The notes under the pieces are model-generated. The model made no database searches and had not been told where the DNA came from. It worked only from the letters and a program-made list of their open reading frames with translations. Of a stretch of DNA of 64,000 nucleotides, positions 31,150-34,339 are shown in pieces; position 1 is the stretch's first letter, and every line of letters begins with the position of its first letter. The position numbers and the translations under genes were made by a program. This DNA is from an uncultured Clostridia bacterium (GTDB taxonomy: Bacteria; Bacillota; Clostridia; TANB77; CAG-508), in assembly GCA_948678575.1 (NCBI GenBank), contig CAPPGO010000003.1, positions 133,691 to 197,690 of the forward strand. The letters are read 5' to 3'.

Positions 31150-31201
31150 ACCTAAATAATACCATATATCGACAAAAAACACAATAAAAGTTTTTTGGGG
31201 C

Positions 31202-31256
31202 AAAAAAAAACAGAGGTCGGACAGTATCACTATGATACGCCCTATTTTACCTCTTT
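31202..31256 (-). terminator. rho-independent terminator of secreted-protein gene B
   Basis: On the minus strand, stem AGAGGT/ACCTCT encloses a perfect GTATCA-TAG-TGATAC inner hairpin, followed by T9. Confidence 0.45.
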
Positions 31257-31338
31257 GAACTCAAACCAGCATTTAACTACTTAATAACTAATAACTCTCA
31301 TTCAAATTTTCAGCTACAATACTTGCAACATAACAAAA

Positions 31339-32562
31339 CTATTTGGTAAATTTTTTCCACTTTCCATTAGCTTTGTATTTGTTTACTCTGCCTGCTTTGT
31401 CCGTTTTGATGGCTGTAACTTTACTTGCGAACGATTTAACTGATTTTCCATCATAATAATAGCCTTTTTGATTTGGTAAGAACCAAACTGACGATCCCTT
31501 TGCAGAAACACCAAAGTCCTTTGCCCCAATGCTTTTTGAAAGCTTTTTATTCTTCCAATATAAGCAATTGTTTTTAGCTACTAAACTTCCGATAAGTGTT
31601 TTTCCGTTGTAAGCCATTGACTTATTGGAAAAATTTTTCACTTTGGAAACTTTTTTTGATGAAACTTTCTTAGGCTCCTTAATCACTTCTGATACAGGAT
31701 GTCTTTTCTTGTCAGTTACGATTTCTTTAATAAAGCCATTATCATTTTTATCAAACGAATATACAACTTCATCATTCAAAATCTCATACGCTGTTGAATA
31801 ACCATCTGCATACGTAAACTCATAAAGTTTTCCGCTCAAATCATAGACATATACAGAATACTGCGCCGTATAGCCTACAAATTTGCCACCTTTACAGGTT
31901 TTGGATAAAGTTTTTTTGAATTGTTTTACATACACACTGGAATTGTAGCATTCAGTTGTTGCAGTCAGTTTATTCTTAAAGTAGGCATCATAACCTATCT
32001 TTTCAGCATTTCCACCTACTGCATACTGATGAACATAGCTACCAGTTGTTACAGTGGCATCCTCATGTCGTGAATAACTTCCAGAGAATACCAGTTCTGA
32101 TAAACTTTTTACGGTTCCATCAGATAACATTACTTTTACAGCAAAATCTTCATTGTCCAAAACAAAATATTTGCCTGTAACGCTACTAACGCTCTGATAT
32201 GCATTACTTAATGATTCTTCCAACCGACGAATTTCTCCGCCATTTGATATTGCAAAAAACATTCCCGCTTTGTTTGTAGCCACTGTCGGCTCTTTCAAAG
32301 AGAAATTTGCAATGTCCTTCATACTAAGCACTCCTGACTGATCGTATAACTCTGCACCTTTCAATGCCATTCTGTCATCGATCTTGTAGGCATTTGCTTT
32401 GCCGTCAAAATCATAATGCTGTACATGAAACATACCGTTTTTATCATCTTTCCACTGATAGCCATAAGGCTCATTTGTGGACGCCTGAACGGTAATATTT
32501 GGAACAAATCCTAATAATGCAACTACTATTGCCAAACACAAACTCTTTAATGCTTTACTCAT
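31339..32562 (-). CDS. secreted protein of unknown function, paralog B (elevated GC about 36-38%)
   Basis: Start MSKALKSL at 32562 with RBS GAAGGGGGA and signal peptide; the tracker N-extension is rejected. Shares motifs with 32860..34095: PYG[YF].W.DD, HVQ.Y..D..A.AY.I.DR, KGGKFVGY..QYSV..YD, KNF..KSMAY.G. Confidence 0.6.
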   Translation of the reverse strand: MSKALKSLCLAIVVALLGFVPNITVQASTNEPYGYQWKDDKNGMFHVQHYDFDGKANAYKIDDRMALKGAELYDQSGVLSMKDIANFSLKEPTVATNKAGMFFAISNGGEIRRLEESLSNAYQSVSSVTGKYFVLDNEDFAVKVMLSDGTVKSLSELVFSGSYSRHEDATVTTGSYVHQYAVGGNAEKIGYDAYFKNKLTATTECYNSSVYVKQFKKTLSKTCKGGKFVGYTAQYSVYVYDLSGKLYEFTYADGYSTAYEILNDEVVYSFDKNDNGFIKEIVTDKKRHPVSEVIKEPKKVSSKKVSKVKNFSNKSMAYNGKTLIGSLVAKNNCLYWKNKKLSKSIGAKDFGVSAKGSSVWFLPNQKGYYYDGKSVKSFASKVTAIKTDKAGRVNKYKANGKWKKFTK

Positions 32563-32859
32563 AATGAATCCCCCTTCTAATAAGAAAAAAATGGTTCTTG
32601 GTTTGGCTGGTTTGAGTTCTTTCGCGGTAACCCCGCAAAAAAAATTATATAAAAGTTGTAATGCGAAAAGCATTATAACTACTCTTATTATACCATATTT
32701 TTGAAAAATAGTAAAATTGTTATGTAAATGTAATAAAAAAGCCAAACTGAGGATGCCATTATGACATTCCCCAGTTTGGTTGAACCCAAGCTAGCTTATT
32801 ATTTCATTCTGCTATGAAAAATTTATGCGATTAAAACTTCTGAAATGCTTAAAATATGC

Positions 32860-34095
32860 TCAGTCTATATTATGCCACACACCATCAGAAGACTTGTACT
32901 GCATTACTCTTCCGTTGTCATCATATTTCAGACGAAGTGCATTTGACGCAATAAACTGGCCATTTACATACAAGTCATCATTGCCATTGATCCAGACAGG
33001 ACGGCAACTTGCTGTAACACCGAACTCACTGCTCTCGTAGCTGTTTGCCTGTTCAACGCCCTTCCAGTACAACTTCTTAGACTTCAAGGAAAGCGTACCC
33101 AAATGGGTTGCTCCATCATAAGCCATAGATTTGCTCTGAAAGTTTTTTACTTCGGTTACATTGCCAACAGGCGTAGTGTTGTTTCCACCGTTGTTGCCCG
33201 GAACCTGTGATGCTGGAAAATTAATAGTTTCGTCCACACCATAAGTCCCCTTGTCTGTCACTATTCCATTTATGAATCCATACGCATTCTTCGTGAAATA
33301 GTACACAATCACATTGGACACAACAGGATGAGCAGTCAAAAAGCCCTCCTTGTACCAGAATTCATAAACCGTTAAGTTTGTGAAATCGTACAGAAGTACG
33401 CTATATTGACCATTGTAGCCTACAAACTTGCCGCCTTTGCATGTATCCGACAGCAAACGCTGAACTGTCTCCACCCAGACATTGCTGTCTTTCGCATAGG
33501 TGGTGACAATGATGTTACCATTATAATAAGCATCATATCCTATCTTCTCGGGATCACCCTCGACAGCATACATTTTAACCATGCTATTGGTAACAGCAGG
33601 ATCAGTGTGGCGAAGATAACTGCCCGAAAAAGTCAAACTTGACAATTTCTTGCTGCTATTCTTGCCGATGGCCTTTTCGCCCAGTCCTTCTACATCTGTG
33701 GTAAAATACTTGCTGACAAAGGAACTCACTTTATATGTGTTGTTAATGGATTCAGACATATACCGGGTCTCCCCAGCATTGGATACAAAATGTAATCCAT
33801 CTTCATCAAAAACAACAGTCTGCTTTTCCTCGGAAAATTCCGCCAAATCGCTAACGATCAAGGTCCCCGCCATATCATACAGCAGATTATCTTTAATCAC
33901 CACGCGATCGCTTATGCGATATGCTCCTGCACGCGAATCATATTCATAGTACTGAACATGCCATACATGAGCGTTATCATCGTACCAAGTAAAGCCATAA
34001 GGTGAGTTATCCTCTGCGTTTGCTGCAAAAGCCGTTGTGCTCATCATTCCAAGCACAAGTACTACCATCAAGAACATGCTAACAATTTTCTTCAT
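32860..34095 (-). CDS. secreted protein of unknown function, paralog A (GC about 45%, far above background)
   Basis: 411 aa; signal peptide MKKIVSMFLMVVLVLGMMSTTAFA; same family as 31339..32562; strongly GC-enriched codon usage relative to flanks. Confidence 0.6.
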   Translation of the reverse strand: MKKIVSMFLMVVLVLGMMSTTAFAANAEDNSPYGFTWYDDNAHVWHVQYYEYDSRAGAYRISDRVVIKDNLLYDMAGTLIVSDLAEFSEEKQTVVFDEDGLHFVSNAGETRYMSESINNTYKVSSFVSKYFTTDVEGLGEKAIGKNSSKKLSSLTFSGSYLRHTDPAVTNSMVKMYAVEGDPEKIGYDAYYNGNIIVTTYAKDSNVWVETVQRLLSDTCKGGKFVGYNGQYSVLLYDFTNLTVYEFWYKEGFLTAHPVVSNVIVYYFTKNAYGFINGIVTDKGTYGVDETINFPASQVPGNNGGNNTTPVGNVTEVKNFQSKSMAYDGATHLGTLSLKSKKLYWKGVEQANSYESSEFGVTASCRPVWINGNDDLYVNGQFIASNALRLKYDDNGRVMQYKSSDGVWHNID

Positions 34096-34339
34096 GATAA
34101 ACTCCTTTCAAAAAACAATTTTTTGGGTGTCTTGCTAGCTGGGTTCTTGTCACGATACACTCGCAACAAAAATATAGATAACTGTTGAATACGCAAAGCG
34201 CATTCCCAGTACTTATATTATACCACTTTTGGTAATTTAAGTAAACTAGTTTATGTTTACCTAAATTATCAAAAAAATAGATGTTTATTAGTAATTTTCG
34301 CCAAAAAACATCTATTTCTAATATTTATTTACACTTATT

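Follow-up and report, generated by a model that had tools for sequence, protein, structure and literature searches.

Genes A and B between thiN and tadA

A 64,000-nt stretch of contig CAPPGO010000003.1 (positions 133,691 to 197,690, hereafter the window) from an uncultured Clostridia bacterium carries two adjacent paralogous genes, A and B, which encode secreted proteins and are much richer in guanine plus cytosine (GC) than the genes around them. An initial annotation had read the pair as a compositional island inserted between thiN and tadA. It had placed thiN upstream, a tadA-type deaminase downstream, and the signal recognition particle (SRP) RNA and dnaX beyond, and we found the flanks to be so. 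In the list below, GC3 is the GC content at third codon positions and ORF is open reading frame.

34340..34981, minus strand: thiN, thiamine pyrophosphokinase, the upstream flank; TPK Pfam domains; GC3 0.13, normal host composition
32860..34095, minus strand: gene B, an ORF of 411 aa with a signal peptide at about residues 1-24
31339..32562, minus strand: gene A, an ORF of 407 aa, paralogue of B
30667..31149, minus strand: tadA-type tRNA adenosine deaminase gene, the downstream flank and conserved anchor of the locus; GC3 0.12, normal host composition

The compositional anomaly, first estimated at about 45% GC for B and 36-38% for A, is real: GC content is 0.427 in B (GC1/2/3, at the three codon positions, 0.46/0.36/0.46), 0.355 in A (GC3 0.31) and 0.268 in the window overall. 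The 55 non-overlapping ORFs of the window, used as the reference for host composition, have a median GC3 of 0.111 (sd 0.06); A and B are the sole ORFs above 0.22, and the genes neighbouring them range from 0.10 to 0.17. A GC-rich string that had been quoted from B, ggcggtaaccccgc, was misplaced; it was found only with one mismatch, at 32623-32636, in hairpin 2 of the 5′ leader of A.

The paralogy of A and B was borne out by a full-length alignment (E = 3e-97) at 41% identity, less than the half of residues first thought to be shared. Four motifs quoted earlier (PYG[FY].W.DD, HVQ.Y, KGGKFVGY..QYSV..YD and KNF.SKSMAY.G) are present in both proteins, and their secreted nature agrees with N-terminal signal peptides that have an AxA-type end, cleaved after TAFA and before A in B, and after VQA and before S in A. 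This N-terminal signal is conserved throughout the family. The true start of gene A is the ATG at 32562, with GAAGGGGG just before it; the mechanical ORF reaches upstream to 32745, and the gene was independently called as 407 aa in other assemblies. The ratio of non-synonymous to synonymous substitution (dN/dS) is low in both genes, 0.07 for B (against its orthologue in locus L026) and 0.16 for A, which shows constraint. Among assemblies of the window's species identity is 99.9%, and two single-nucleotide polymorphisms in B were too few for an analysis of population polymorphism.

Conservation of the locus and age of the pair

The family of A and B is very small: a set of 5.8 billion proteins yielded 33 clusters, and one of 1.84 billion yielded 54 representatives. 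About 30 further clusters form a sister subfamily, which shares about 25-30% identity with this main family, and exhaustive profile searches found no relatives beyond the two. Loci from named metagenome-assembled genomes (MAGs) and metagenomes are given L-numbers; L008 is a MAG from water deer. The family genes stand in the following contexts:

Context I, order thiN-B-A-tadA-242-aa gene-ffs-dnaX: the window and L008; L026 has thiN-B-A and its contig ends after A
Context I, order X, family gene, tadA, then the 242-aa gene and dnaX where the contig extends: L005/L009, L007, L027, L028, L029 and L031
Context II, asnS...family gene, convergent with a VanW/SH3 gene: the ‘Ca. Scatovivens’ loci
Context III, beside leuS and rplT-rpmI-infC: L012, L014, L024, L032 and L033

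The family thus occupies a few fixed slots beside housekeeping genes, and in the window the slot is upstream of tadA. L008 has a B-like and an A-like copy between thiN and tadA in the same order as the window. A single orthologue lies directly upstream of tadA in the clade of L005, L007, L027, L028 and L029, and also in the more distant L031. Every relative that retains the flank has either the pair or the single orthologue just upstream of tadA. We therefore found no support for an inserted island, since the site is occupied in L008, L026, L005/L009, L007, L027-L029 and L031, and the pair is conserved at this position in related genomes as far as this could be tested.

Host genes (tadA, the 242-aa gene, dnaX and ybaB) group the window with L008, then L005, L027 and L007, with L031 as outgroup. 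The family proteins of the tadA slot repeat this order, at identities of 51-54%, 40-47% and 27-32%. Orthologues of both the A type and the B type exist in L008 and L026, so the duplication is older than the splits of the window from L008 and from L026. The earlier suggestion of two independent acquisitions, or of one old and one recent copy, also fails: the difference in GC between A and B is stable across orthologues and does not mark a difference in age.

In composition and codon usage A and B do deviate as an island of horizontal gene transfer (HGT) is expected to. Between thiN and tadA, the ORF list and a repeat scan of the locus revealed no mobility gene and no flanking direct repeats. 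The search for a GC-rich reservoir covered genomes, metagenomes, distant subfamily members and the neighbouring small ORF and led to AT-rich hosts only, and no donor of matching composition was identifiable, all of the approximately 30 loci with context lying in hosts of 25-31% GC. The family was absent from the viral contigs searched. A phage or defence origin was rejected, as there were no viral contigs with the family, no PADLOC matches, and PHROG matches only at chance level.

Maintenance of the GC-rich composition

High GC3 is a trait of the whole family. Every family gene examined (about 30 loci in more than 15 species, both subfamilies and all slots) has a GC3 of 0.28-0.74, against host medians of 0.09-0.20, and the flanks are AT-rich on every contig (25-31% GC). 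A-type genes have GC3 0.28-0.31 and B-type genes 0.38-0.46 across species. In the L005 clade six species all lie at 0.68-0.74, even where the proteins are only 53-58% identical.

Decay of the GC excess was tested through r, the correlation between orthologues of the S/W state (G or C, A or T) at synonymous third positions. Under a two-state stationary model r = exp(-(u+v)T), so that along each lineage a GC excess of foreign origin would, if neutral, shrink by a factor of the square root of r. Between L005 and L007, r was 0.26 (0.17-0.33) for host flanking genes and 0.31 for the family gene; between the window and L008 it was 0.13 for host flanking genes, 0.20 for B and 0.12 for A; between the window and L005 it was 0.09 and 0.12 for host and family genes, respectively. 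The family values are about those of the host, so the age of the genes matches that of the species splits, and their synonymous sites have changed as fast as those of host genes.

If the excess were decaying neutrally at this rate, GC3 in the ancestor would have to be 1.06-1.20 for L005-L007, even with r set at its upper confidence limit, and 0.91-1.76 for window-L005; for window-L008 the values are 0.65-1.03 (B) and 0.50-0.62 (A). Because the ancestral GC3 required for L005-L007 and window-L005 is impossible, the GC-rich state has been held. The implied scaled bias S toward G/C-ending codons is 1.4-2.6. The composition is a maintained state, with an equilibrium GC3 of 0.3-0.7 against about 0.1 in the host, and not the fading mark of a foreign origin. 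Polarisation of synonymous changes (W-to-S against S-to-W) by parsimony was rejected as a test; it gave a spurious W-to-S excess in host genes at GC3 of about 0.1 and is biased at these divergences.

Putative transcript units and predicted leader structure

Transcription starts and 3′ ends were inferred from consensus promoters and terminators. On this basis the following elements were assigned to the two genes (UTR, untranslated region):

34217..34245, minus strand: promoter-like site of B, TTTACT, 17-nt spacer, TATAAT, with the TG of an extended -10
34096..34211, minus strand: putative 5′ leader of B, about 116 nt, GC 0.38
34205-34187 and 34168-34148, minus strand: hairpins 1 and 2 of the B leader, from folding and covariation
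34146-34134, minus strand: 5′ arm of the predicted long-range helix in the B leader, GAACCCAGCUAGC, from the sequence
32782..32795, minus strand: 3′UTR arm of B, GCUAGCUUGGGUUC, complementary to leader positions 34146-34134
32735..32779, minus strand: putative intrinsic terminator of B, a CCAAACUGrGG...CCUCAGUUUGG stem and then a U-run, read from the sequence
32687..32715, minus strand: promoter-like site of A, TTTACT, 17-nt spacer, TATAAT with TG, the hexamers being the same as for B
32563..32681, minus strand: putative 5′ leader of A, about 119 nt, GC 0.34
32675-32659 and 32638-32622, minus strand: hairpins 1 and 2 of the A leader, from folding and covariation
32619-32606, minus strand: 5′ arm of the predicted long-range helix in the A leader, GAACUCAAACCAGC, from the sequence and repeat scan
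31257..31270, minus strand: 3′UTR arm of A, GCUGGUUUGAGUUC, just before the terminator
31202..31254, minus strand: putative intrinsic terminator of A, an AGAGGU...ACCUCU stem and then U9, read from the sequence

The promoter layout TTTACT-17-TGnTATAAT was seen upstream of all family genes. Since each gene has its own promoter-like site and terminator, A and B are probably both monocistronic. The terminator scan gave plus-strand hairpins only, one of which overlaps (32773-32792), and left the minus-strand site of B uncalled.

The leaders are predicted to be structured, with fold z-scores of -2.5 (B) and -3.2 (A). In both, a third hairpin involves the Shine-Dalgarno (SD) sequence, partly pairing it in B (AAAGGAG) and pairing it in A (GAAGGGGG). 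All main-family leaders have in common a first hairpin, which begins 2-6 nt after the inferred 5′ end, a second one with a stem that varies in sequence from lineage to lineage, and a single-stranded motif that is conserved. In the group-I alignment 95% of cells were paired and 7 of the 14 pairs showed double compensatory changes; this covariation score was reached by none of 500 shuffles and collapsed in slid controls. No Rfam 15 family matched the leaders at the gathering threshold, and matches at E up to 5 were at chance level only.

In the clade with GC3 of 0.70, the hairpins are followed by a C/A-rich, G/U-poor and apparently unstructured stretch of 70-100 nt before the SD (L005:7890-7990, with equivalents in L007 and L027-L030), which is absent from the genes of the window. 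The leader of the B-type gene of L008 (L008B, L008:9745-10000) is much longer, about 245 nt.

Predicted pairing of the leader with the 3′UTR

In A, the 3′UTR arm is a perfect complement (14 of 14 nt, from the repeat scan) of leader positions 32619-32606, with a predicted cognate duplex of -30.1 kcal/mol, and none of 15 cross-clade 3′UTRs pairs with this leader as well as its own. In B, 13 nt are paired with a 1-nt bulge (-28.6 kcal/mol). The two helices are equivalent in place and different in sequence.

Across the family the helix was tested by computing duplex energies for the homologous part of the leader, immediately 3′ of hairpin 2; the longest runs of Watson-Crick and G.U pairs were rejected as a statistic, being noisy in AT-rich sequence. 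For 17 main-family genes, the predicted cognate duplex averaged -28.0 kcal/mol against -16.2 ± 5.0 for cross-clade combinations (p = 4e-10), and in 13 of them no foreign 3′UTR paired as well as their own. Pairing at the homologous leader position was found in 17 of 18 main-family genes, and analogous 5′-3′ pairs exist in the sister subfamily (13/13 in L031). Helix length runs from 11 to about 25 bp across the family. The helix sequences are clade-specific and the B-type gene of L026 retains pairing through G.U pairs, which indicates pairing at the RNA level. One clear exception is L008B, where the leader motif forms a local hairpin (GACUC-AAAC-GAGUC) in place of the 3′UTR pairing.

Both arms would lie on one transcript, and the helix presumably forms in vivo. 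As predicted from these sequences, leader hairpins combined with 5′UTR-3′UTR closure are a previously undescribed, co-evolving architecture.

Strand and site pattern of the bias

At fourfold degenerate sites of host genes, A makes up 0.49-0.69, and C and G at most 0.06 each. In the family A is down to 0.03-0.49, C and G are up and T is unchanged. Boxes with pyrimidine-ending (NNY) and purine-ending (NNR) codons are both shifted, and GC1 and the GARP residues (Gly, Ala, Arg and Pro) follow weakly. The same coding-strand asymmetry was found in two kinds of oppositely oriented neighbours, the VanW/SH3 and adenylate-kinase-like genes, each on its own strand. The transcribed leaders have GC 0.34-0.38, and the untranscribed promoter DNA of B has 0.195, against an intergenic background of 0.236 ± 0.039. 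This strand asymmetry and the step in GC between leader and promoter argue against GC-biased gene conversion (gBGC) and against a retained foreign block, and point to the transcript.

Several other causes were considered and rejected. Strand-specific deamination linked to tadA does not fit, as C and G at third positions (C3 and G3) both rise and members far from tadA share the bias. Avoidance of MazF/EndoA sites is not seen, UACAU and ACA being undepleted against shuffles of synonymous codons. Gene conversion between A and B left no tracts, and only two short motif-level DNA matches are shared.

The VanW/SH3 neighbour is a secreted protein gene with a VanW and three SH3_3 domains, convergent with the family gene (L010:11355-12554, also in L011, L013, L022 and L023). 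The adenylate-kinase-like gene lies beside the family gene (L012:11451-12098, also in L014 and L016). Both are vertically conserved, with GC3 of 0.29-0.51. Immediately upstream of the family gene in L005 (7185-7880) and L007 (about 9210-9900) lies a sharply bounded GC-rich tract of about 700 bp that is 98-100% identical between the two, with flanks at 75-85%, which indicates a recent exchange between these species. It carries a divergent 142-aa ORF (GC3 0.66), with no Pfam, PADLOC or PHROG match, whose 9 clusters are all in the same clade. Genes with moderately raised GC3 (0.24-0.45) were also seen at L005:3550-4041, L027:1521-2009, L010:7830-8405, L012:5079-5612, L014:1818-2378 and L013:4737-5285, and include an ECF (extracytoplasmic function) sigma factor and small membrane or unknown proteins. 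About 5% of ORFs may belong to such a ‘GC3-rich’ class.

Protein family and predicted fold

A and B had no match in Pfam, NCBIfam or PADLOC, chance-level matches only in PHROG, and no sequence link to any chain of the Protein Data Bank (PDB). As the initial annotation had stated, neither has a recognisable catalytic motif or Pfam domain. Two AlphaFold (AF2) models of B, the second built on a deeper alignment of 62 sequences, reached pLDDT (predicted local distance difference test) scores of 80 and 84 and gave the same all-beta layout, in which the signal helix, which is cleaved, is followed by an all-beta region (about 33-290), a disordered linker (about 295-310) and a C-terminal beta domain (315-411). 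The composition of the linker varies with the GC of the gene, such low-constraint linkers going from K-rich to G/P/T-rich.

Structural matches of both models were at blade level only. EUBREC_1955 (PDB 3s25, beta-propeller-like) and lectins of the tachylectin and tectonin type showed single-blade similarity over 90-145 residues, at 6-11% identity and a template modelling (TM) score below 0.25; unlike these, A and B have a separate C-terminal beta domain after a disordered linker. No hidden Markov model of the beta-propeller lectin families (DUF5050, Tachylectin and tectonin) matched A or B above threshold. The models suggest a family of secreted, entirely beta-stranded proteins of about 410 aa made of beta-propeller-blade-like repeats. 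Because a catalytic motif is absent, an extracellular or cell-wall-associated binding role is most likely, at low confidence. One cluster of 429 aa (P0020) is protein A read through its TAG stop (31339-31275, minus strand) and a later TAG, both as Q; it looks like a gene-calling artefact of an alternative genetic code in one assembly source and not a real variant.

Flanking genes and other features

34275-34317: terminator hairpin of thiN, from the repeat scan
29961-30689, minus strand: 242-aa gene, predicted membrane protein, between tadA and the SRP RNA
29798-29895: SRP RNA (ffs), from the Rfam search
38541-38616, minus strand: tRNA-Arg(CCT), the only tRNA of the window, about 4 kb from the A/B locus

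The 242-aa gene overlaps the 3′ end of tadA by 23 nt. It was present in all relatives at 52-94% identity, and had no match in Pfam or PADLOC. tadA probably has its own promoter, downstream of A. The ORFs at 50616-63879 (minus strand) were recognised by eye, and we take them to be gyrA, gyrB, recF, dnaN and dnaA; with these genes at 50.6-63.9 kb and in the same orientation, the A/B locus is about 30 kb from a probable replication origin and on the leading strand. At 39458-41145 (plus strand) the window has short ORFs (160, 213 and 111 aa) with weak matches to TrwB/TraG coupling proteins, and the counterpart in L031 is one DUF87/TrwB-like protein of 582 aa. This suggests that a conjugation-type ATPase gene may have been fragmented in the lineage of the window.

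Interpretation of the GC bias

The best explanation, in which belief and doubt are evenly matched, has two joined parts. A and B arose from an old tandem duplication within a lineage-restricted, vertically inherited family in a very AT-rich clade of gut Clostridia, and the mRNA of this lineage-specific family of secreted beta-repeat proteins is under strong selection at the RNA level. Selection on the transcript would then be the most likely cause of the GC bias. Each gene would form a self-contained unit with its own promoter, a 5′-terminal hairpin, a second covarying hairpin and a GC-enriched, A-poor transcribed body, and a segment of the leader would pair with its own 3′UTR just before the terminator, closing the mRNA on itself. 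By analogy with hbs and aprE, such an architecture might protect the mRNA against RNase J1 and RNase Y, enzymes with a preference for accessible 5′ ends and for AU-rich single strands, and might couple mRNA stability to translation. mRNA stability, together with this coupling, may be what is selected. A stronger form, in which an ‘armoured’ mRNA, that is the whole transcript and not the protein alone, has been the unit of selection in all of the family through the whole history of the clade, we offer only tentatively. It would be the first example of selection on mRNA architecture or stability keeping a coding gene 20-60 GC3 points above the mutational equilibrium of its genome, and would give the broadest comparative evidence for circularisation of bacterial mRNA.

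Several points weigh against selection on the transcript. The transcript ends were read from consensus promoters and terminators, and the link from UTR architecture to coding composition is circumstantial, GC content not being tied directly to mRNA stability here. GC1 and GARP rise slightly with GC3 and the linkers turn from K-rich to G/P/T-rich, which fits a general pressure at the nucleotide level equally well. Unrelated neighbours (VanW/SH3, adenylate-kinase-like and the 142-aa ORF) are GC-rich too, and the 700-bp tract beside an orthologue was recently exchanged between two species; together these hint at a regional or recombination-linked process. The non-decay result depends on a two-state stationary model and is decisive for the L005 clade and the deep splits, not for the window-L008 pair alone, and the parsimony polarisation is uninformative.

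Such a process could be gBGC, or another recombination-linked repair bias, acting at a local hot spot independently of RNA function. The near-identical tract between diverged flanks and the GC-rich unrelated genes adjoining family members would suit it, and paralogues at different loci are closer within a host lineage than positional orthologues are across lineages, which might be due to conversion. A role for gBGC in bacteria has been proposed (PMC4450053). The S needed here, about 1.4-2.6, is also of a size that a gBGC coefficient could take. We nevertheless think it unlikely, as gBGC should be strand-symmetric while the coding strand has far less A3 than T3 whichever way the gene is oriented, and the GC excess ends at the promoter, in the untranscribed upstream DNA of B. 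Conversion tracts between A and B are missing, synonymous turnover is no faster than in host genes, and a shift of 20-60 GC3 points far exceeds the differences that, as far as we know, have been ascribed to bacterial gBGC. No better supported, in our judgement, is selection at the level of translation, in which rare G/C-ending codons would slow or time the translation of a Sec-exported beta-repeat protein, or tie its expression to a condition-specific tRNA pool. TTA/bldA control in GC-rich Streptomyces is a mirror image of such a scheme, and we know of no precedent for the scheme itself. The concentration of the shift at synonymous sites, its following of the reading strand, an S of the size typical for codon selection, and the secretion of the GC-rich genes of contexts I and II (the family and its VanW/SH3 neighbour both have signal peptides) agree with it. 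Against it, ribosomal-protein and translation-factor genes of the same loci do not share the preference (GC3 0.11-0.15 in rplT, 0.10-0.23 in ybaB), the rise is as large for G-ending NNR codons as for C-ending NNY codons, which fits no single-tRNA logic, the non-coding leaders are GC-enriched too, and the cytoplasmic adenylate-kinase-like neighbour has the same bias.

The least probable reading, which is largely refuted, is that DNA from an unsampled GC-richer reservoir (a taxon, plasmid or phage) was acquired horizontally time and again, or replaced the resident alleles, with homologous flanks targeting the same slot. Atypical composition is the classic signal of HGT, the codon usage of the L005 clade (GC3 0.70, with NNA codons nearly absent) is like that of a genome of about 55% GC, DNA exchange does occur at the locus, and many family members are on short contigs with little context. 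A reservoir is opposed by synteny kept across hosts down to 63-68% dnaX identity, by a family tree congruent with the host tree, and by the synonymous S/W correlation, which equals that of host genes and so makes the copies as old as the species splits. The GC3 levels of the A and B types are stable between orthologues, no member among the approximately 30 loci has a GC-rich context, viral matches are absent, the neighbouring GC-rich ORF is also confined to the clade, and the locus is without mobility genes or flanking repeats.

Unusual GC content is commonly taken as a sign of recent HGT, and A and B are a counter-example to composition-based calls and to the amelioration clock. They are also a test case for the forces (RNA, codon and conversion) that hold bacterial synonymous sites off equilibrium, with flanking host genes as a built-in control. 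The proteins belong to a family without annotation that occurs only in uncultured gut Clostridia.

Comparison with known systems

In the model of Lawrence and Ochman, compositionally atypical islets acquired by HGT ameliorate toward the host. A and B resemble such islets in being a short, sharply bounded block between housekeeping genes, with GC3 and codon usage that deviate strongly. Unlike them, the block is syntenic and co-diverges with its host, is without mobility features or an identifiable donor, and does not relax toward the host composition although its synonymous sites are saturated. The vls locus of Borrelia is a GC-rich, recombining antigen locus in an AT-rich genome, and there too a surface or secreted protein gene is persistently far GC-richer than its host. 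A and B differ in having no silent cassettes, near-identical repeats or conversion tracts, and in being under purifying selection overall.

At the RNA level, long-range folding of mRNA shapes gene sequences in Bacillus subtilis (PMC12697547). RNase Y targets single-stranded AU-rich RNA for cleavage, and the aprE mRNA owes stability to a 5′ stem-loop (PMC3997798). Hairpin 1 of A and B could be a stabiliser of the aprE type, since it covaries and starts 2-6 nt after the inferred start, as read from the consensus promoter. In Staphylococcus aureus, the 3′UTR of icaR pairs with the SD region and represses translation (Ruiz de los Mozos et al. 2013, PMC3868564). The predicted pairing in A and B is likewise an intramolecular 3′UTR-5′UTR contact in a Firmicute mRNA, but its 5′ arm lies about 35-50 nt upstream of the SD, right after hairpin 2, and the SD is in a separate predicted local hairpin.

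A close parallel is the hbs mRNA of B. subtilis, in which a 14-bp interaction between 5′ and 3′UTR restricts cleavage of the leader by RNase Y (Braun, Durand and Condon 2017, PMC5737220). Both systems are Firmicute monocistronic mRNAs, as far as predicted for A and B, with a structured leader and a 5′UTR-3′UTR helix of about 14 bp upstream of the SD, which the helix leaves unmasked. Unlike that of hbs, the helix described here is a prediction, co-evolves across a whole family at 11 to about 25 bp with clade-specific sequences, and accompanies an anomalously GC-rich coding body; the protein is a secreted one of about 410 aa, against the 92-aa nucleoid protein encoded by hbs. Earlier cases of end-to-end pairing in bacteria are known only from single genes (such as hbs and icaR), whereas the predicted UTR-pairing architecture of the A/B family spans about 60 protein clusters.

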